Source: Clostridia bacterium (lineage in GTDB: Bacteria; Bacillota; Clostridia; Oscillospirales; CAG-272). From it: a stretch of DNA of 47,056 nucleotides. How positions within the stretch are numbered: position 1 is the first letter of the stretch; each line of letters opens with the position of its first letter. The position numbers and the translations under genes are program-made. Shown one piece after another: positions 3,592-47,056 of the stretch. The stretch is taken from the NCBI GenBank assembly GCA_017452565.1, contig JAFTMF010000171.1, positions 1 to 47,056 of the forward strand, in the 5' to 3' direction. The notes under the pieces are model-generated. The model saw only the letters and a list, made by a program, of their open reading frames with translations. It was not told the origin of the DNA and searched no databases.

Positions 3592-4083
3592 TCATTTTTG
3601 CAGTTTCAGCTCTTTGAGATAGACCCATTCTTCCGCGGATTGCTGTGGCGGATAGAATCCACCTGCTCTGCGGTAGTCCAGCTTCTCGTAAAACTGCCAC
3701 GCATCCTCGTCTGCTTGCGTGCTGGTCATCGCATATGAATAGCCGCACCTCTGCAGATCACGTTCCCACGTTTGCATCAGTAAGGTTCCCAGTCCCTGCC
3801 TCCGATACGGTTCGTCTATGTACAGCAGATCCAAAAATGGGATGGTCTGCCAGAATAGACTATATCGCAGTATGCCCATTACGGAATTCTTCCGTTTATC
3901 AAGGTTGCTATCGTCCTTGAGAACATAGACTTGACCGTTCTCGATGCATTCTTCTAACCGATTTTGCGGGATATGGCTATCCAGTTTTGCGATCGTCTGT
4001 TGATCTTTTTGTGTTGCAAGCTCTATAATCATAGCTATCTCTACCTCATCTGCCGTCACACTGCAGATCAGCGGAGCTTTCAA
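3592..4083 (-). CDS. GNAT-family N-acetyltransferase
   Basis: 163-aa ORF. YIDEPYRRQGLGTLLMQ matches the acetyl-CoA binding Q/RxxGxG/A motif. It overlaps the activase gene by 38 nt, which implies the same operon. The stop is TGA. Confidence 0.75.
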   Translation of the reverse strand: MKAPLICSVTADEVEIAMIIELATQKDQQTIAKLDSHIPQNRLEECIENGQVYVLKDDSNLDKRKNSVMGILRYSLFWQTIPFLDLLYIDEPYRRQGLGTLLMQTWERDLQRCGYSYAMTSTQADEDAWQFYEKLDYRRAGGFYPPQQSAEEWVYLKELKLQK

Positions 4084-4900
4084 TGATCCCCTTCAGGCAA
4101 GCGTACTGCTTGTCGGACAGACGCGCTTCCTCACCTAAGGTGTACGGCTCTCCCAGCAGCTCGTATTTATGAATCCCCAATTCGTGATAGCGCAGAGCTT
4201 CGGTCCGCCGGATATTGGGAAACCGATTCAGATAGTCTCTGATACGGTTTGCTTCCTCCTCGTTTGCGTTGAAGGTGCCAATCAGCGGCACTCTCACCCA
4301 AATGGGTGCGCCGCTTTCATACAAACGTTGGAAATTCTCCAAAATCCGATGGTTGGAGACGCCGGTAAATCGCTTATGCAGATCGGGATCGATACACTTG
4401 ATGTCATACAGAAACAGCTGGGCATAGGGGATCAGCTTTTCTATATTGGAGAAATCCACCGCTCCGCAGGTATCGATCGCCACACGGATGCCGCATATGG
4501 ACAGACGCTTGGCACATTCCAGCACAAAATCGCTTTGCAGAAGACATTCACCGCCGGAAAAGGTGACGCCGCCCTCGCCTGTGAAAAAGGCTTGGTCTTC
4601 CAGAAGCTCGTTCACCAGTTCGTCGGGGGTGTATTCCCTGCCCGCTACCGAAAGGGCTTCGGTGGGGCAACGGCCTGCACCGTCGGCAGTGTGTGCACCA
4701 CCACAGCTGCCGCAGGAAATGCACTTGCGGGCATCGTAGGTCACCGATGGGATGCGGGATAGTCCCTCGGGATTCTGACACCATTTGCACCGCAGCGGAC
4801 AGCCCTTCAGAAACACCGTGGTGCGAACGCCCGGTCCATCGTGGAGGGAGCACCGCTGGACGTTGAATACAACACCCTTGACAGCAGAATCAATATGCAT
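4046..4900 (-). CDS. Glycyl-radical enzyme activating protein (radical SAM)
   Basis: 284-aa ORF. It carries CSLHDGPGVRTTVFLKGCPLRCKWCQNPE (the GRE-activase signature with CxxxCxxC) and an extra ferredoxin-like Cys cluster, CISCGSCGG...RCP. Confidence 0.9.
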   Translation of the reverse strand: MHIDSAVKGVVFNVQRCSLHDGPGVRTTVFLKGCPLRCKWCQNPEGLSRIPSVTYDARKCISCGSCGGAHTADGAGRCPTEALSVAGREYTPDELVNELLEDQAFFTGEGGVTFSGGECLLQSDFVLECAKRLSICGIRVAIDTCGAVDFSNIEKLIPYAQLFLYDIKCIDPDLHKRFTGVSNHRILENFQRLYESGAPIWVRVPLIGTFNANEEEANRIRDYLNRFPNIRRTEALRYHELGIHKYELLGEPYTLGEEARLSDKQYACLKGIIESSADLQCDGR

Positions 4901-5837
4901 CGCTGAGTTTTTCCAGAATCTCCTGATCCAGTACGTAGTCGGACATCTCTAAGATTTCCTTCAGATGGTCACTGCGGGAGGAGGAGAAGAGCGGAATCAC
5001 GGTAGGACGGTTGGGCAGGCGATCCTGGGCGAGCAGCCACGCGATTACCAGCTTAGAGGGGGTCAGACCCAACTCCTTGGCGCATTCCAACAGAGTGTCC
5101 AGACGGGATCCGGTTTCGTAAAAATCGGGGAGGCGGGCGGGATCGTCATAGCCGCCCTTAGCAAGACAGGAGTAAGCTACCAGCGGAATATCGTTGGCCG
5201 CAAGATAGCGCAAACGCTCCTCTACGGCGTTAACGTTGAACTCGTACGCCAGTTTGTAGCCGCCCTTGGGGAAGAGATAGGTGTAGCAGGGCTGGTTTAC
5301 CGTATAATCGGCATATCCATTCTGCTGAGCGATATGCTTAGCCTCGCACATCCGCCAAGTGTAGAAGTTGCTGGCACCGATGGCACGCACCTTGCCCTGC
5401 TTCACCAAGCGGTCAAAGGCTTCCATCGTTTCTTCCAGAGGAGTGTTTTTATCATCGGTGTGGGCGTAGTAGAGATCAATATAATCGGTGCCCAGCTTGC
5501 GCAGACTTTCATCGCACCAATACTCGATCTGCTTTGCGGTCAGACCCGCACCTTCGCCGTGGCGGTCAAAGCCTACCTTGGTAGCAATCACCAGCTGGTC
5601 ACGGCATCCGCGATCTGCCAGATATTTGCCCAGCAGAGTTTCGCTCTCATCGCCCGATGCGCCCGGCCACCAATGTGCGTAATTGTTGGAGGTATCTAAG
5701 AAATTACCGCCCATCTCACGGTAGAGATCCAGCTGACGGAATGCTTCCGCTTCGGACACCTGCGTTCCGTACATCATCGTTCCCAGGCAGATATTGCTGA
5801 CAGTCAGACCTGCCCGCTTCAGTTCAACTTTTTTCAT
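4890..5837 (-). CDS. Aldo/keto reductase family oxidoreductase
   Basis: 315-aa ORF with LGTMMYG, FLDTSNNY, IATKVG and VRAIGASNF, the conserved AKR blocks. It overlaps the activase start by 11 nt. Confidence 0.9.
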   Translation of the reverse strand: MKKVELKRAGLTVSNICLGTMMYGTQVSEAEAFRQLDLYREMGGNFLDTSNNYAHWWPGASGDESETLLGKYLADRGCRDQLVIATKVGFDRHGEGAGLTAKQIEYWCDESLRKLGTDYIDLYYAHTDDKNTPLEETMEAFDRLVKQGKVRAIGASNFYTWRMCEAKHIAQQNGYADYTVNQPCYTYLFPKGGYKLAYEFNVNAVEERLRYLAANDIPLVAYSCLAKGGYDDPARLPDFYETGSRLDTLLECAKELGLTPSKLVIAWLLAQDRLPNRPTVIPLFSSSRSDHLKEILEMSDYVLDQEILEKLSDAY

Positions 5838-5870: not shown

Positions 5871-7220
5871 TTAGAATGTGTTTCTGGTAATCAAATCGTC
5901 TTGCGCCCGCTTGCACATCTCCACGAATACCGCACTGTAGCCGGTGACACGCACCATCAGATCCCGATGGGCGTCCGGATTTTGCTGTGCTTCTACCAAA
6001 AGCTCCCGATTCACAGCGCTGAGTTGGATTTGCATACCGCCCTTTTCGAAATAGACCGCAAGGATATTGGCAAGATTGCGAAGTCCCTCTTCGCCTGCAA
6101 AATTCTTAGGTTGGATGGTGACGTTCAACGCACCCGATGCGAAGCTGGCAAAAGGAATATTCGCCAGCGACGTCAGCATTGCGGTGATACCGTTTTTCGC
6201 CGATCCTACCGACGGTTGGCTGTTCTGAGCGATGGGAGCGCCCTTCTTTCTGCCGTCCGGGGTAGCACCGTACTCGGCGCCCCGATCCATATGCCACGTA
6301 TCGTTTTCGATGCAGAAGCGCAAACGGAGGAATGGCGGCAAATCTCTGCAAGCGTCCTTGACCGCCCGCACAAGGGTTTCGGGGAGTGCTTTTGCCCAAT
6401 AGGAGGACAGTTTATGACCGTCGCCCAGCTTGGGAGCGTTCTTACAGAGGGCGTGGATCACGGCGTTGTTCTCAAAATCATTTTCGCAGGCAGCTAAAAT
6501 CTCGGCGGTGGATAGATGCTTTTCGTTAATCAGATAATCCATTGCCGCGGCAATATCGATGACGTTGGCCACTCCGCCGAAGGGAACGATCAGATTGGTT
6601 CGCTCAAAGAAGAGGCCGCCGTTTTCGATATTATCGTAGGCAAAGCAAGAATAAAACTGCAACAGGTGAGAATTGGGCTTGTTTTCCTTGGGCAGGATGG
6701 GAAGCGTATCACGGACAACCGTTGTGTAAAGGCAATCGTAGACCGTTTGCAAAAAGGCCTCTCGGTCAAAACCGTCGGACTCTCTGCAGTATTGCTTCAC
6801 CGTTTCCATAAACAGCGGCAACATCGCACGGGAAGCACCACGGAAGAAGGTGCCGTGATAGGGGCGATCCTTGCCCGGGATCGTCGGCCAGTTGCAGCCG
6901 AAATACTCGTGGGAAAGTGCGTCTTCCACGCTCTCACCGTCGTTTATATACATCGCACACTCGGTGATATCGTTGTACACCATCGCAGATGCGCTGGCGC
7001 GCAGCTTGGAAACGAAGGATTGCCAAATATCGGGATGCGCTTCCGCAAATCCCTCGGCATAGCGGAACACCACCACGGGGTTTTTGTACTTGGGATGAAT
7101 CCGCTCCACCAGTAGCGCAGTCAGCTCGTTGCCTACCGCCTTTTGGGTTTTAGGATCGAGTCCGACAGAATCAGATACTGCGGTGCATCGTAGCAAAGGA
7201 TGCGGTGCCAGCCGGTACAC
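5871..7220 (-). CDS. Glycyl radical enzyme, C-terminal fragment (Cys loop and Gly-radical domain); part of a frameshifted gene
   Basis: 449-aa ORF. The Cys loop is VEDALSHEYFGCNWPTIPGKD (Cys codon 6894-6896). The C-terminal glycyl radical motif is MVRVTGYSAVFVEM (Gly codon 5940-5942). The ORF overlaps the N-terminal fragment by 88 nt in a different frame. Confidence 0.85.
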   Translation of the reverse strand: MYRLAPHPLLRCTAVSDSVGLDPKTQKAVGNELTALLVERIHPKYKNPVVVFRYAEGFAEAHPDIWQSFVSKLRASASAMVYNDITECAMYINDGESVEDALSHEYFGCNWPTIPGKDRPYHGTFFRGASRAMLPLFMETVKQYCRESDGFDREAFLQTVYDCLYTTVVRDTLPILPKENKPNSHLLQFYSCFAYDNIENGGLFFERTNLIVPFGGVANVIDIAAAMDYLINEKHLSTAEILAACENDFENNAVIHALCKNAPKLGDGHKLSSYWAKALPETLVRAVKDACRDLPPFLRLRFCIENDTWHMDRGAEYGATPDGRKKGAPIAQNSQPSVGSAKNGITAMLTSLANIPFASFASGALNVTIQPKNFAGEEGLRNLANILAVYFEKGGMQIQLSAVNRELLVEAQQNPDAHRDLMVRVTGYSAVFVEMCKRAQDDLITRNTF

Positions 7221-8062
7221 ATCTCGTGTCCTGCACGCGCGGACATCTGATGCTCTCCTCTGCCCATAATCAGATTGTTCTTAGCATAGAAATCGTCGAT
7301 CAGGAGGGCGGCATCCTCTCGGCTGAGCACGCCTTCTGCGATATCCTGCCGATAGAGATCAATCAGGAAGAGATCCAATCGACCGATCGTCAGCGTGGGA
7401 TTGGGAGAAATGTAGGCGCAGAAGAAAAATTCGATAGACCAAATCAACTGCAGTGCACTGCGGAAGGTCGTGGGAGCGCCTTCTGCCGCAATCTTGCACG
7501 CTTCTGCTGCCTCTGTGAGACCTGCCTGCTCTGCGGCTTCGGCAGAGCGATAAAGGAAACGGATCAAAGCATCGTAGATCATCACACAGCCCTGCACGAA
7601 ATCCCGTTTTTCGCCGTTGCCTTCTGCTTCGAAGCGATCTCTCCACGATTCGGCGTAGGCCTTCATTGCGGGGAGTCCCATCCGAATCAGATCGTTCCAG
7701 CGGAAGGATTGATGACCGGGATCGGTAATGAAGCTCGGAATGCCTTCCATCCGCAACAGATCGTGAATATATTCATTGCGGAAGATCTCCTCTTCCTCAG
7801 GAGTAAAGCTTTCCTCCACCATTCTGCCAATCAGCAGATCGGTGTCCTTAACGGGAATGGAAACCTGCCCTACGAACCGACGCATTCCCTCGCCGTACCG
7901 GAGCGGCTGTGAGGAAATCTCTGCCACCTCTTTGGCAATCCGGCTCCACAGACGGACTCGCTCTGAGGAATAGGTAATCACCGGCTTTTGGGTCAGCGCG
8001 GCTATGGCTTCCCTTTCCATAATCCCGCGCAGTTCATCAATTTTGTATGTGCCAATATTCAT
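7133..8062 (-). CDS. Glycyl radical enzyme, N-terminal fragment; part of a frameshifted gene
   Basis: 309-aa ORF with PFL-like N-terminal domain character. It continues directly into the 5871-7220 ORF after a 1-nt frame change near 7150-7200. The combined length is about 730 aa. Confidence 0.75.
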   Translation of the reverse strand: MNIGTYKIDELRGIMEREAIAALTQKPVITYSSERVRLWSRIAKEVAEISSQPLRYGEGMRRFVGQVSIPVKDTDLLIGRMVEESFTPEEEEIFRNEYIHDLLRMEGIPSFITDPGHQSFRWNDLIRMGLPAMKAYAESWRDRFEAEGNGEKRDFVQGCVMIYDALIRFLYRSAEAAEQAGLTEAAEACKIAAEGAPTTFRSALQLIWSIEFFFCAYISPNPTLTIGRLDLFLIDLYRQDIAEGVLSREDAALLIDDFYAKNNLIMGRGEHQMSARAGHEMCTGWHRILCYDAPQYLILSDSILKPKRR

Positions 8063-15561: not shown

Positions 15562-15921
15562 TCAGAACTGAAGTCCTGCTTCACGAGCACCTGCTGCGAG
15601 TTCCAGCACGCGGCCGTGATAGAGGTAACCGCCACGGTCGAATACGACCTCAGTAATTCCCTTTGCGATTGCACGCTCTGCAATCAGTTTGCCGACAACC
15701 TTCGCTGCCTCCTTGTTGGATCCGTTCATGCCGAAGTCCTTCTCATAAGAGGAAGCGGAAACCAGAGTAGTGCCGGTAACGTCGTCGATGATCTGTGCCT
15801 GAATGTTAGCGTTGGAACGGTAAACACACAGACGGGGGCATTCTGCAGTGCCGGAGATCTTAGCTCTAACGCGAGTGTGTCTCTTCTTACGCTGAATGTT
15901 GGAGTCTTTTCTTGATACCAT
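15562..15921 (-). CDS. rplR: 50S ribosomal protein L18
   Basis: [36 protein letters not shown]; 119 aa. Confidence 0.97.
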
Positions 15922-15939
15922 CTTCTTCTACTCCTTTCA

Positions 15940-16479
15940 TTACTTACCGGTTTTGCCGGCTTTGCGACGGATGCGCTCGCCCTCATAGGCAATACCCTTG
16001 CCCTTGTAGGGTTCGGGAGGTCTCTTGCCTCTGACAACTGCTGCTACCTGACCAACCTTCTGCTTATCAATGCCGGACACGATGATGGTATTTGCATCGG
16101 GGCACGCGAAGGTGATACCGTCTTCAGGTTCCATAACAACCAGGTGGGAATAACCCAGGGTCATCTGGAGGTTCTTACCGGCCATTGCTACTCTGTAGCC
16201 TACACCGGTAACGATGAGCTTCTTGGAATAACCGTTCGCTACGCCAACAACCATGTTGTTCACGAGAGTTCTGGTCAGACCGTGAAGAGCTCTGTTCATC
16301 TTTTCGTCATCGGGACGGGAGACAACGATCTCGCTGCCTTCCTTTGCGATGGTCATGTTGGGGTGGAACTTCTCAGTCAGAGTTCCCTTAGGTCCCTTAA
16401 CGGTGACCACATTGTTTTCACCGATGGTGACTTCTACACCAGCGGGAACAGGAATCGCTTTTCTACCAATTCTAGACAT
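15940..16479 (-). CDS. rplF: 50S ribosomal protein L6
   Basis: [34 protein letters not shown]; 179 aa. Confidence 0.97.
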
Positions 16480-16497
16480 CTTCTCTGCCCTCCCCGA

Positions 16498-16893
16498 TTA
16501 CCAAACGAATGCCAGGACTTCGCCGCCAACGTTCAGGCTACGAGCCTTCTTGTCGGTCATGATGCCCTTGGAAGTGGAAACGATGGCAACACCCAGGCCG
16601 TTCATAACCTTGGGCATATCTTCGCAGCTAGCGTAGATACGCAGGCCGGGCTTGGATACACGGCGAAGACCCTGGATAACCTTCTGCTTGCCGATGTACT
16701 TCAGGGTGATTCTGATTACGCCCTGCTTGCCGTCTTCGATTACCTGATAGCCCTTGATGTAGCCCTCTTCAACCAGGATGTCTGCGATGGACTTCTTCAG
16801 GTTGGAAGCGGGAACGTCAACGCTCTCATGCTTGGCATTGTTTGCATTGCGGATTCTGGTAAGCATATCCGCGATTACGTCTGAAATCTGCAT
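16498..16893 (-). CDS. rpsH: 30S ribosomal protein S8
   Basis: [36 protein letters not shown]; 131 aa. Confidence 0.97.
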
Positions 16894-17029
16894 AGTATTT
16901 TTCCTCCTAATTTATGCAAGTTCAATCTCTTGCTGCCCCCAGCCTTGTGGGGGCTGCATTCCGACGGTTAAAACCGGACTCGGTTTTCCTTCCGGAAGGA
17001 TTGGAGCTGTTAATATTTGTCTTGGTGAA
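16894..17029 (-). other. Unusually long, hairpin-rich rpsN-rpsH intercistronic spacer (136 nt)
   Basis: The minus-strand RNA contains four elements. (1) UCUUGGU-AAUUC-ACCAAGA, spanning the rpsN stop. (2) The palindrome UCCUUCCGGAAGGA. (3) AAAACCG-AGUC-CGGUUUU. (4) GC-a-GCCCCCA-CAAGGC-UGGGGGC-a-GC. These are followed by the rpsH SD (AGGAGG). Confidence 0.6.
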
Positions 17030-17215
17030 TTACCAAGAAGCCTTTCTTACGCCGGGAATCTCGCCCTTGTAGGCCAGTTCACGGAATCAGATACGGCAGA
17101 TACCATACTTACGCATATAAGCATGGGGACGGCCGCAGATCTTGCATCTGTTGTATTCACGGGTAGAGAACTTCTGGGGTCTCTGCTGTTTTGCAATCAT
17201 CGACTTCTTTGCCAT
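17030..17215 (-). CDS. rpsN: 30S ribosomal protein S14 type Z, interrupted by an in-frame TGA at codon 43 (a Cys position)
   Basis: My translation is [60 protein letters not shown]. It is collinear with the 61-aa zinc-ribbon S14, whose fourth ligand Cys43 aligns with the TGA at 17087-17089. It is absent from the ORF track because of the internal stop. Confidence 0.85.
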
Positions 17216-17229
17216 GTCAATTCTCCTCC

Positions 17230-17769
17230 TTATTTCGCGAACGGTGCGCCCAGCAGAGTCAGAAGCTCACGAGCCTCTTCGTCGGTCTGTGCGGTAGTTA
17301 CAAATGCAATGTCCATACCACGGATCTTGTCGATCTTATCGTACTCGATTTCGGGGAAGATCAGCTGCTCCTTCAGGCCGAGAGCGTAGTTGCCTCTGCC
17401 GTCGAAGCCGTTAGCGTTGATACCCTTAAAGTCACGTACGCGGGGCAGTGCCAGGTTGAACAGCTTATCAACGAACTCGTACATCATCTCGCCACGCAGG
17501 GTAACCTTTGCGCCGATCTTCATGCCCTCACGAAGCTTGAAGTTAGCAACGGACTTGCGTGCGAAGGTGGGAACTGCCTTCTGACCGGTGATCAGGGTCA
17601 GCTCGCTGATGATGGTGTCGATAACCTTAGCGTTTTCCTTTGCGTCACCGGCGCCAACGTTGATAACAACCTTGTTCAGCTTGGGGATCTGCATAACGCT
17701 CTTGTACTGGAACTTCTTCATGAGTGCAGGAGCAACTTCGGAAGTATAAAGTTCTTTCATTCTTGCCAT
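17230..17769 (-). CDS. rplE: 50S ribosomal protein L5
   Basis: [39 protein letters not shown]; 179 aa. Confidence 0.97.
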
Positions 17770-27163: not shown

Positions 27164-29233
27164 TTAACCAAAGAGCTTGGTAATCGTCAGCATCGGCAAC
27201 AGACCAATCAATTGATAGACCAGAATATTCAACGAAGTTACCTCGCTCATACCGATCATCGTCAGCACCAACCAATAGACCGGAATCGACGCCAGCATAA
27301 AGAGCACTGCAAATCCAACGCCCGTTTGCATAATCGCACGCGTAATGCGGCAAGCCTTTAGCGATTCGAACAAACCGCTTCTGTTGGAGGAAAGCAACAA
27401 GCTCTCCGCAGACTCCCGTTGAAGGATTCTATCCTTCTTTTCTTTACCGCGCACAATCTTCAGCGGCATATCTCCGCCCCATTGGATGCGGCGCTCCAAA
27501 AATTCCCGATTGATATTTGGGTCAAAGGTTTTAATGGCAACGCCAATGCCGGATCGAAAGAGATTCTTAGCAATTTCTTCGAAATCCTCGTCCATTTCAT
27601 ATTCCAGCTCCATACGGCCCACGGCAATGCGAGAGATTGCCATATACATAATTGCATCGGTGCATTTTTCATCTCGCTCATCCGGAGGCACCTTCACTCC
27701 GCGTTCGCGCAAATAGGTGCGCGTGCCGACCATCACCAATTCTCCATCCACCGCCGCTTCCAGGCCGTTTTCGGAAACGGTGATGAAGTCCATATCAGCC
27801 GTATAGCCGGTGTCGGATACCACCAGTGAGAACATTTCGCCCAGCGCGCCGCCGGTGGCACAGAAAATTGCGGATGCATAGCCAATCACTTTGGATATAT
27901 CGGCCTGATTCAAGGCCTTCACCTTCAAAAGCTTCACTTGATCCGCGGGAAACATTTCCGCATCAGTGAAAGTGACTACCGCAGGAGGAGCATATTCATC
28001 CATCGCTCGCTCACCGATAACAGCAGCGTTCACCTGATACGCCCCCCTGGAGAGCGAAGTCATCGGAGCGTAGAAAACGTACAAAAGCGATATAGGCATC
28101 GCAAGGAGATAGCCGCACATTCCCACCGCAACCGCATCGGACAACGACTTGGTCATAGACCAGCCAAAAAAGCCGAAACCGATTCCAATCAGTATGCAAA
28201 GGGGAACCAGCAGAACAATGGGACGCTTGACCGAACCGGGACGGTTGATTTCCCGATTGAAGCCTTGCACGCTACGGATTCTTTCCACTGCAAAATAACG
28301 GGTAGATTCCGACATCTCTTTTTGCAGGGCACTCCGCTCCAGCTGAGCCTCGTCCCCTTCCAGCATCCGAAGCGTATATTTTTCTCTTGAGGAGAACGCA
28401 ACGCAAAACGCCATATATTCCCGCTTGATGGCACCGTAATAACAATATTTCGTCCAAAATGCGCAGAACAACACAGCAGCACAGAAAGAAATCATAGGTT
28501 CTTCGGGCAGGAACACAATTCTGAACAACAAGTACAGAATATGAACCACCACCATCACCGCAAAGATCCGTCGCGGTGCACCGCCCCGTTCGGTCTTTTT
28601 CTTGCTTTGGAAGGTTTCGGGAAGCAGCGCGATGCTCCAAACCATCCATTGAATGGCAATCCATCCGCACACTACCGGATAGCGAACCGGATCCAAATAA
28701 TCCGGAAGCTGAAATCCGAAGAGCGCAGTATTTTCCCAAACCGCGGTCACTACAATCCTCAGCGCCAGAAGCCACAGACTCAAGCGTTGCCAGCGAAGCT
28801 GTTTCCGATAATCGGCGGCAATGGATTTCTTTTGCTCCACCGTCAAGTGATCGTACGGATCAGCCGCCTTTTTCTTTTCCCGTACACGCGACGGAATTTG
28901 CGCCGTCTCGGGATTCTTTTCTTCATCCTTGATGCCGAAAATACGCTTTAAATCATATTCCGTTTCATCAATTCGTGCCTTTGTCGGGTCCTCTGCATCA
29001 GATGTTCGCCGTTTGCGGGATGAAGGGATCGGCTTCGCTTTGGTAACCGTCCGCGGACCGTTCCCTTTTCGCCGAAGTGCATCATGACCAAAGAGCTTTT
29101 CCAACGGCGGCGCTTGCGGAGCTTCCTTCGGTTGCTCATCGGACTGTACTTTTTCGACAATCTGCGAAGTGTCGACGTGTTTTTTTAGTTGATCCAGCAG
29201 GTCATTTGCATGGATCTCATCATTATTCTTCAT
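27164..29233 (-). CDS. P-type ATPase-like integral membrane protein with degenerate catalytic motifs
   Basis: 689 aa: a hydrophilic N-terminus, about 6 TM helices, a soluble domain, then 2 C-terminal TM helices. The soluble domain is collinear with the P1B-ATPase P/N domains. However, DKTGT is FTDAEMF, TGDN is KTFDPN, and GDGxND is LSSNRSG. Confidence 0.5.
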   Translation of the reverse strand: MKNNDEIHANDLLDQLKKHVDTSQIVEKVQSDEQPKEAPQAPPLEKLFGHDALRRKGNGPRTVTKAKPIPSSRKRRTSDAEDPTKARIDETEYDLKRIFGIKDEEKNPETAQIPSRVREKKKAADPYDHLTVEQKKSIAADYRKQLRWQRLSLWLLALRIVVTAVWENTALFGFQLPDYLDPVRYPVVCGWIAIQWMVWSIALLPETFQSKKKTERGGAPRRIFAVMVVVHILYLLFRIVFLPEEPMISFCAAVLFCAFWTKYCYYGAIKREYMAFCVAFSSREKYTLRMLEGDEAQLERSALQKEMSESTRYFAVERIRSVQGFNREINRPGSVKRPIVLLVPLCILIGIGFGFFGWSMTKSLSDAVAVGMCGYLLAMPISLLYVFYAPMTSLSRGAYQVNAAVIGERAMDEYAPPAVVTFTDAEMFPADQVKLLKVKALNQADISKVIGYASAIFCATGGALGEMFSLVVSDTGYTADMDFITVSENGLEAAVDGELVMVGTRTYLRERGVKVPPDERDEKCTDAIMYMAISRIAVGRMELEYEMDEDFEEIAKNLFRSGIGVAIKTFDPNINREFLERRIQWGGDMPLKIVRGKEKKDRILQRESAESLLLSSNRSGLFESLKACRITRAIMQTGVGFAVLFMLASIPVYWLVLTMIGMSEVTSLNILVYQLIGLLPMLTITKLFG

Positions 29234-37697: not shown

Positions 37698-38159
37698 TTA
37701 TTCGCTGATTTCCAGAATCGTTACGTTTGCGTGACCCATAGGAGTTTCTACTACTACGGTTTCGCCAACCTTGCGGCCAAGAATGGCGCTGCCGATGGGA
37801 GAGAGGTCGGAAATCTTATTTTTGAGAGGGTCTGCTTCGGTAGAACCAACAATATGGTATTCGATTTCCTCTTCCCACTTTGCATTGTATACGCGAACCT
37901 TGGAACCTACGCCTACTGCATCGGTATTCACTTCGCTTACAACAACGATATCCTTCAGCATTTCTTCCAGCTCGGCGATTCTGGATTCAACCTTCGCCTG
38001 CTCGGTTTTTGCTTCATCGTACTCGGAGTTCTCGGAAAGGTCACCAAAGCCCTTTGCGATACCGATTGCCTCGGTGATCTCTTTTCTTCTGACGTTCTTT
38101 AGATAATTCAGTTCTTCTTCCAGTTTGAGTTTGCCTTCTTTAGTTGCGGTACGTGCCAT
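37698..38159 (-). CDS. greA: Transcription elongation factor GreA
   Basis: 153 aa, with the [13 protein letters not shown] acidic tip and a C-terminal globular domain ([18 protein letters not shown]). Confidence 0.95.
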
Positions 38160-38263: not shown

Positions 38264-38488
38264 TTAATAGGTGTCCAGCACAACAATTTTCTGCAGCATT
38301 TCTTCCAGCTCGGCAATGCGGATCAGTATTTTCTCCCGCACTGCTTTGGCATCATTGTATTCGTGCAAATCGCCCATACTGATAGAAGCATCCATTTCTT
38401 CTTGTATGGCTTCCAGCACATCGGTTTTTAGGTGGCGCAGTTCTTCTTCCAGCACCCGCTTTCCACCGGGGGTAGTATAGATGGCCAT
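38264..38488 (-). CDS. GreA/GreB N-terminal coiled-coil domain-only protein
   Basis: The 74-aa protein, with an AAGGAGAG SD, aligns with GreA residues ~1-75. GGKRVLEEELRHLK matches LT..G...L..EL..LK; GDLHEYNDAK matches [13 protein letters not shown]; [14 protein letters not shown] matches [14 protein letters not shown]. It stops where the C-terminal domain would begin. Confidence 0.7.
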   Translation of the reverse strand: MAIYTTPGGKRVLEEELRHLKTDVLEAIQEEMDASISMGDLHEYNDAKAVREKILIRIAELEEMLQKIVVLDTY

Positions 38489-42201: not shown

Positions 42202-43506
42202 TCAGTCCTCCTCCTTTGCGGGCGCACCCTTGGCGGTGATGACCGGAATGACCATAGTAGGACTATCGTCAGTCTCATCGGCAGGTACTTCCCTGTTCTC
42301 CGTCTGAACGGGCAGAACAACGGTAGGCTCTTCGCATTCCTCAGAGTCAGCCGAAGGCTCAACAGGCTCGACAGACTCCGCAGATTCGGCAGGCGCCGTC
42401 TCCTGCGGCACTTCTTCTGCCGCCGGAATGGGCAGCCCCAGCATTTGCATCGCCGCAATTACCAAATCGTTGGCGGTGTGGGAATCCATTTCACCGGACG
42501 CCACCAAAGCCGACAGATCGTATTCGATGGTATCGCCGGTTGCATACACCGGTTCTTCCTCTACCAAAACGGGAACGGATACTTCCGCAGGTTCGGCAGA
42601 CGGGTCGGGAGTGGCTTCTTCAGATTCTGCAGAAGAGGCAGGATCAGCGGAATCGGTCGATTCCACGGGCAAGTCAACGGTCGGCAAAATGATGGGAACG
42701 ATGGGAATGGGCGCACCGGGGATCACCTCGGTGGCATCTACCATAGGAATCCGCACCGACTCGGTTGGCAATGCGTCTTCATCCACGGCAGGGGCCGTCT
42801 CCCCCTCCGAGCTATGCTCGATCAGATCGCCGGGAATATATGCGGCACGATCCTCCACAATCTGCCCGCGGTGCAAGCGCACGATGCGGTGGCCGAAGGA
42901 TTCAGCCAGCTCCCGATCGTGAGTCAGTACCACAACCGTTTTTTCATAACGGCTTTGGATTCTGCCAAACAGCTCCAGCAGATCTCTGCTTTCCACCGGG
43001 TCGATATTGCCGCAGGGCTCGTCCGCGATGATCACGTTGGGACCGCCTGCAATGGCACGTGCCAGCGCAACCCTCTGCTGCTCGCAGCCGGTAAGATCGC
43101 CGGGATAGCATTTCACCTTATCGGACAATTCTACCATTTGAAGCGATGCCATCACCTTAGTACGGATAGAGCCGGAGGGCTCTCCGGTGACTCGCAGAGC
43201 GAACGCTACGTTTTCATACACCGTTTTATCGGTAAACAAACGGAAATCCCGGAAAACAATGCCGATTTTTCGACGGTATTCTGGAATTTGTCTCCGTTTG
43301 ATGGTATCCAACCGCTGATCGGCTACCGAAATAGTGCCTTCGGTGGGTTTATCCTCGGCAATCAGCAGCTGCAGAAGAGTGGTTTTACCCGCTCCCGAGC
43401 CGCCCACGATGAACACGAACTCGCCTTTATTGATCTGCAGATTGACATCCATCAGAGAATAGTTGCCTTCTGCATAAGTTTTGGTTACATTCTTCAGTTC
43501 AATCAT
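42202..43506 (-). CDS. ftsE: Cell division ATP-binding protein FtsE with a ~200-aa acidic C-terminal extension
   Basis: The ABC core occupies residues 1-~228, with Walker A GGSGAGKTT, signature LTGCEQQRVALARA and Walker B VIIADEP. Residues ~229-434 are Pro/Glu/Asp/Ser/Ala/Val-rich. Confidence 0.9.
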   Translation of the reverse strand: MIELKNVTKTYAEGNYSLMDVNLQINKGEFVFIVGGSGAGKTTLLQLLIAEDKPTEGTISVADQRLDTIKRRQIPEYRRKIGIVFRDFRLFTDKTVYENVAFALRVTGEPSGSIRTKVMASLQMVELSDKVKCYPGDLTGCEQQRVALARAIAGGPNVIIADEPCGNIDPVESRDLLELFGRIQSRYEKTVVVLTHDRELAESFGHRIVRLHRGQIVEDRAAYIPGDLIEHSSEGETAPAVDEDALPTESVRIPMVDATEVIPGAPIPIVPIILPTVDLPVESTDSADPASSAESEEATPDPSAEPAEVSVPVLVEEEPVYATGDTIEYDLSALVASGEMDSHTANDLVIAAMQMLGLPIPAAEEVPQETAPAESAESVEPVEPSADSEECEEPTVVLPVQTENREVPADETDDSPTMVIPVITAKGAPAKEED

Positions 43507-47054: not shown

Positions 47055-47056
47055 CG

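Follow-up and report, generated by a model that had tools for sequence, protein, structure and literature searches.

The question raised by this locus is whether an in-frame TGA, found where the gene for type Z ribosomal protein S14 (rpsZ) should encode its fourth zinc-ligand cysteine, is a recoded codon, a real nonsense mutation or a fault of the deposited sequence. The window, that is, the whole stretch of DNA analysed, corresponds to one complete contig (47,056 bp) of an NCBI MAG deposited as 'Clostridia bacterium' with locus tags IJW98_ (Table 1). A sequence-only reading of this DNA had listed three options: a base-call error, a pseudogene compensated by a paralogue and recoding of UGA. 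It made no choice between them but spoke against selenocysteine. Our comparisons favour the first, the TGA being a singleton on a contig that carries a second lesion, and speak against recoding, as the TGA is not conserved. Judged from comparative sequence data, the TGA is probably a consensus or assembly error in the MAG contig.

Table 1. Positions of the interrupted rpsZ gene, its neighbours and the second disrupted gene in the 47,056-bp window
Feature	Positions	Strand	Basis or remark
rpsZ, type Z (zinc-ribbon, 61-codon) S14 frame, interrupted at codon 43	17030..17215	(-)	translation; NF005974 match
In-frame TGA, fourth zinc-ligand Cys codon (43)	17087..17089	(-)	deviant base is A at 17087
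Truncated 42-codon ORF, MBQ7325479.1 'hypothetical protein IJW98_07035'	17087..17215	(-)	as deposited
Other three zinc-ligand Cys codons, all TGC	C24 17144-17146; C27 17135-17137; C40 17096-17098	(-)	translation and pattern match
rplE (L5), upstream neighbour of rpsZ	17230..17769	(-)	
rpsH (S8), downstream neighbour of rpsZ	16498..16893	(-)	
Glycyl-radical (PFL-like) enzyme gene, split into ORFs 7133-8062 and 5871-7220	5871..8062	(-)	Pfam on both halves

Translation and a protein family match confirmed that the rpsZ frame runs with a TGA at codon 43, at the fourth zinc-ligand Cys, as had been proposed. Once the Cys was restored, NF005974, the NCBIfam profile for 'type Z 30S ribosomal protein S14', matched the 61-aa protein along its whole length (1-61 of 61) with a score of 124.8 bits, the cut-off being 77 bits. 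The 42-aa fragment reached 76.2 bits, barely below that cut-off, and this is probably why the deposited ORF carries the name 'hypothetical protein'. The gene has in common with type Z S14 (RpsZ; NF005974, PF00253) its 61 codons, the location between rplE and rpsH, which is the spc operon position of this protein, and, with the Cys restored, the CxxC...CxxC layout and the full-length profile match. It differs in codon 43, where TGA reduces the annotated product to 42 aa. A complete S10-spc-alpha cluster surrounds rpsZ with all other genes of the cluster intact, and no decay was seen elsewhere in rpsZ, in its Shine-Dalgarno sequence or in the operon.

An in-frame TGA would also be seen if this organism read TGA as an amino acid, as in code 4 or code 25, though the TGA of rpsZ itself is all that speaks for such a code. 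TGA is the stop codon of 8 of the 35 genes checked (rpsJ, rpmC, rplR, map, rpsK and three more), each of the expected protein length, and no other in-frame TGA was found in conserved genes of the window. Because TGA ends these eight genes, a global reassignment is excluded, and we regard the probability of a TGA-sense code as vanishingly small. The earlier statements that TGA is a genuine stop of rpmC and rpsJ and that global reassignment is unlikely were thus borne out.

Contigs of the same species were collected by exact look-ups with the L5, S8, L6 and SecY proteins, and they came from ENA and JGI metagenome assemblies. Of the independent same-species contigs, 19 span codon 43 of rpsZ, and every one of them has TGC there. 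In the window contig, the fourth zinc-ligand codon is TGA and the three other TGC codons are intact; the private change is C to A at the third position of the TGC codon, nucleotide 129 of rpsZ. The rpsZ genes of 6 of the 19 contigs equal that of the window at every base but this one. A 1,543-bp contig (L106) that spans window positions 15820-17362 and carries the same L6 haplotype as the window differs from it at two bases, 17087 and the synonymous 16267. In another TGC-bearing contig (L001), the 350 nt around codon 43 are otherwise the same as in the window. Intact S14 genes were also present in the longer contigs, at 99.85% identity to the window over 21.3 kb (L112) and 99.78% over 15.9 kb (L113), and a 52.7-kb ENA contig, which comprises loci L112 and L114 and is 99.8% identical to the window over ~42 kb, encodes an intact 61-aa S14.

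The wider comparison gave the same result. Cys stands at codon 43 in all 78 readable family-level GTDB relatives, of which 67 have TGC and 9 TGT by pattern, and two (L016 and L072) were read as Cys by translation. The closest genomes at the species level belong to uncultured Clostridia from gut and rumen, of the Oscillospiraceae/Acutalibacteraceae type, the L5 identity of the GTDB representatives found is at most 85%, and the contigs closest to the window come from animal-gut metagenome assemblies. We then used a degenerate pattern specific to a TGA in type Z S14 (CxxCGR-N30-CR[ILVM]-TGA-[FLIVM]RE); as a control, its TGA form matches the window and its TGY form matched 10 of the 10 loci then compared. 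There were no matches with TGA at S14 codon 43 in 185,579 species genomes. Conservation of the TGA among orthologues, which the sequence-only reading had put forward as a check, was therefore found in 0 of 19 same-species contigs, 0 of 78 family-level relatives and 0 of 185,579 species genomes.

The TGA pattern had four matches among 241 million metagenome records. Three are type Z S14 genes with TGA at the fourth Cys codon (L011 at 128-195, L013 at 3760-3827 and L014 at 1943-2010); the fourth (L012) was a false positive, not S14. The three belong to unrelated organisms with GC contents of 66%, 37% and 62%, respectively, and are scattered singletons that form no lineage. Their neighbouring ribosomal protein genes are intact and without in-frame stops, and each of these TGAs is probably a singleton lesion like that of the window. 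In one GTDB representative MAG (E14__bin257; L038), rpsZ (~2057-2242) has an in-frame TAA at Tyr33 (GCC TAA CTT), which means that stops in MAG copies of rpsZ also occur at non-Cys codons.

The protein records agree with the nucleotide data. Among ~15 billion proteins, the truncated 42-aa product is present on one contig (47,056 bp, NCBI only). The intact product of 61 aa, which bears the name 'type Z 30S ribosomal protein S14' and is identical to the Cys-restored sequence of the window, is on 125 others. The 42-aa product had no exact match in a gene-position index, and a protein-cluster look-up returned one contig; two 414-aa permeases (P0066 and P0068) listed as its cluster mates are unrelated and represent a clustering artefact. 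Nor did the protein collection contain an exact copy of a read-through S14 in which residue 43 is W or X.

Decoding of the UGA as selenocysteine, or its programmed read-through, would yield a full-length S14 in which, in the former case, Sec would be the fourth zinc ligand. The window resembles bacterial selenoprotein genes in that its in-frame UGA lies where all homologues have Cys, a likeness that is not diagnostic. The sequence-only reading had invoked this 'classic Sec/Cys pattern' as an argument, which did not hold, since TGA is the only stop that one change can make from TGC or TGT. Of the 549 single-base changes possible in rpsZ, 32 are nonsense and 4 of these fall on Cys codons, and a UGA at a Cys codon is no commoner than chance would give. 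The Sec/Cys alignment carries no weight because any one-base nonsense change at a Cys codon gives TGA.

The RNA downstream of the UGA was also considered. The earlier statement that no convincing SECIS-like hairpin is present stood, as Rfam searches gave no match, but the accompanying description of a weak 3+3 bp structure did not: RNAfold predicts a long imperfect hairpin that begins just before the UGA and extends to ~+42, with z = -2.2 for a 76-nt piece and 3 of 200 shuffles as stable. Together with the alignment of the UGA with Cys in homologues and the three unrelated metagenomic S14 genes that have TGA at the same codon, this hairpin is what speaks for Sec or read-through. It is, however, made of the coding sequence of conserved S14 residues, is the same in TGC-bearing relatives and has the apical loop ACAA. 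Bacterial SECIS loops carry G at the apex according to the bSECISearch criteria. No SECIS can have co-evolved with the UGA, because the surrounding sequence is identical in TGC-bearing contigs, as in the six with an otherwise identical rpsZ and in L001. The whole window searched against Rfam at the gathering threshold had no match to SECIS or any other family, and a search of 16850-17260 at E <= 10 with models that included the bacterial SECIS gave no SECIS match; the sole match, HOTAIR_3 at E = 6.9, is meaningless.

In the 47-kb window, ARAGORN detected no tRNA and no tRNA-Sec, and neither sel genes nor Sec-related Pfam domains were found; a literature search returned no relevant report of an S14 selenoprotein. 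Sec normally occupies redox-active sites rather than structural zinc sites. In contrast to bacterial selenoprotein genes, the window thus combines a UGA that is conserved in no orthologue, even at >99.8% identity, with no SECIS match, no Sec machinery in the window and a residue that is a structural zinc ligand. With no match among the species genomes, and the metagenomic cases being unrelated singletons, we consider selenocysteine or programmed read-through extremely improbable. The related case, in which the A at 17087 would be real and the UGA read through either by Sec-tRNA, helped by a fortuitous hairpin, or by a near-cognate Cys- or Trp-tRNA, is very improbable as well. If it were true, such read-through would give a full-length, functional S14, and an essential ribosomal protein would have been caught very soon after a change from Cys to a recoded UGA; a Sec or read-through codon at the zinc ligand of such a protein would, if real, be unprecedented.

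The quality of the contig itself bears on the origin of the TGA. A glycyl-radical enzyme gene is broken in the window by a 1-nt deletion (GGG to GG) at ~7164 relative to both L112 and L113. A 96%-identical orthologue aligns with the window in two frames, one for residues 1-300 and the other for residues 301-571, with the switch at 7163. In L112, the gene is intact and encodes a single 730-aa protein, and 730-aa products (P0063 and P0064) are on record, whereas the two halves in the window were deposited as 'hypothetical proteins' IJW98_06940 and IJW98_06945. Directly downstream of this gene lie genes for a radical-SAM activase (4046-4900) and an aldo/keto reductase (4890-5837). The TGA in rpsZ and the deletion at ~7164 thus both break a gene, and both are private to the window contig.

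The other differences between the window and its closest relatives are of another nature. We counted ~25 substitutions over 21 kb between the window and L112, and 41 over another 21 kb between the window and L114. Apart from the two lesions, the differences from L112, L113 and L114 are overwhelmingly synonymous changes at third positions, the pattern expected where real polymorphism is subject to selection, and the two disruptive changes stand out against it. Comparison of window positions 26169-47056 with L114 and L115 showed substitutions only and no further disruptive private change. An FtsE-like ABC ATPase ORF (42202-43506, minus strand) was examined as a possible third lesion and rejected; its length of 434 aa is real because it is the same in L114 and L115. 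Pfam ABC_tran matches residues 18-165 of this protein, and the ~270 residues beyond have no Pfam domain. A typical FtsE has ~230 aa in all and is far shorter than this protein.

Two readings of the private base then have to be weighed. In the first, the A at 17087 would have arisen as a consensus or assembly error, possibly through low coverage or strain mixture. The codon 43 of the organism itself would be TGC, and it would make an ordinary 61-residue zinc-ribbon S14 with all four Cys ligands, with nothing recoded and no special mechanism required. In the second, the TGA would be a real nonsense allele private to one strain, which would survive through a long, Cys-free S14 paralogue or low UGA read-through, or would be a deleterious or lethal minority allele picked by the assembler.

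The ~0.15-0.2% of genuine-looking polymorphism between the window and its nearest assemblies makes it a distinct haplotype, with ~70 other real-looking SNPs relative to L112/L114, which could carry private mutations of its own. At good coverage, a short-read consensus rarely contains single-base substitution errors. The three unrelated metagenome contigs with TGA at the same S14 codon also count against an error, and the frameshift in the glycyl-radical enzyme gene, which is non-essential, could be genuine decay. Some Firmicutes are said to have both Cys-containing and Cys-free S14 paralogues, and such a zinc-dependent/zinc-independent (C+/C-) pair would allow the loss of the zinc-ribbon copy to be tolerated. 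The window differs from that arrangement in that no second S14 is encoded within its 47 kb and the disrupted copy shows no other decay, the remainder of rpsZ, the Shine-Dalgarno sequence and the operon included. The TGA is also in no other assembly of the species, even the contig with two differences over 1.5 kb (L106), and no kind of real polymorphism is less likely than a nonsense change in a gene that is essential and otherwise perfectly conserved. In bacteria, UGA terminates strongly when the next base is U. A real nonsense allele is therefore unlikely, although less so than any form of recoding.

We infer a technical cause instead, because rpsZ is essential and otherwise perfectly conserved, the contig carries a second private lesion and the allele is absent from every independent assembly. 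Absence of a variant from independent assemblies of the same population is a mark of an artefact, and this is what was found for the TGA. The case is also like other single-base nonsense and frameshift artefacts in MAGs, being private to one assembly, with a second private indel on the contig and a comparable TAA at Tyr33 in another MAG.

Beside the interrupted gene, the spacer between rpsZ and rpsH (16894-17029, minus strand) attracted our attention. It is 135 nt long, which is unusual, as most family-level relatives have 14-40 nt, and it is strongly structured (z = -3.4). The spacer is conserved in the species cluster and in the nearest GTDB relatives (L002, L003, L016, L017, L018, L020, L021, L096, L097 and L099). 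RNAalifold applied to nine variants, from the species cluster and the four nearest GTDB species, predicted three helices, namely an outer one, an inner hairpin whose tip varies and a further hairpin, with compensatory changes in 7 of 20 pairs. In the predicted fold of the window spacer, the Shine-Dalgarno GGAG of rpsH is base-paired with a CUCC that lies upstream of the element.

A different-looking structured rpsZ-rpsH spacer is present in distant Oscillospiraceae that are Lawsonibacter- and Intestinimonas-like (L074, L082, L085, L089, L092 and L093; ~2,240-2,600 per locus). Its layout is GGCGAAAGG - hairpin - GAUACCUCGCC - hairpin - GUAACU..AGGAGG, with compensatory changes in 9 of 18 predicted pairs and a short helix over the Shine-Dalgarno sequence. 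The AAGG...(A/U)ACC internal loop of this distant spacer presumably recalls the S8 site in 16S helix 21. Neither spacer element had a match in Rfam 15. Eckert and Weinberg presented 20 ribosomal-leader candidates, none of them upstream of rpsH (PMC7247131). The S8 operator of Escherichia coli sits at the start of rplE, and most such E. coli regulatory RNAs are, as the title of that paper has it, found only in Gammaproteobacteria (PMC3616713). The candidate in the window lies instead in the rpsZ-rpsH spacer, and we propose as a reasonable hypothesis, based on predicted folds and covariation, that this spacer may be a translational operator for S8.

Other observations concern the remainder of the window. 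Its end at 47056 coincides with position 1 of L114 and L115, so that three independent assemblies (the window and the 52.7-kb and 24.1-kb ENA contigs) break at the same base, which suggests a repeat or a strain-variable boundary just beyond the window. A 74-aa ORF (~38264-38488, minus strand) consists of only the N-terminal coiled-coil domain of GreA/GreB; it lies directly upstream of a full-length greA (37698-38159) and is kept in L114 and L115. A 689-aa ORF (27164-29233, minus strand), flanked by a SpoU methylase gene and a radical-SAM/DUF2344 pair, has no Pfam match and the same length in L114 and L115.

In the public record, the error that we consider probable has left S14 mislabelled as a 42-aa 'hypothetical protein', and the glycyl-radical enzyme stands there split into two 'hypothetical proteins'. 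More generally, caution is warranted, as an in-frame TGA at a Cys codon looks just like a random nonsense error at that position, and comparison with assemblies made independently from the same population is a quick way to settle such cases. The rpsZ of this Clostridia bacterium is an ordinary type Z S14 gene, and its TGA is best filed as no real feature.
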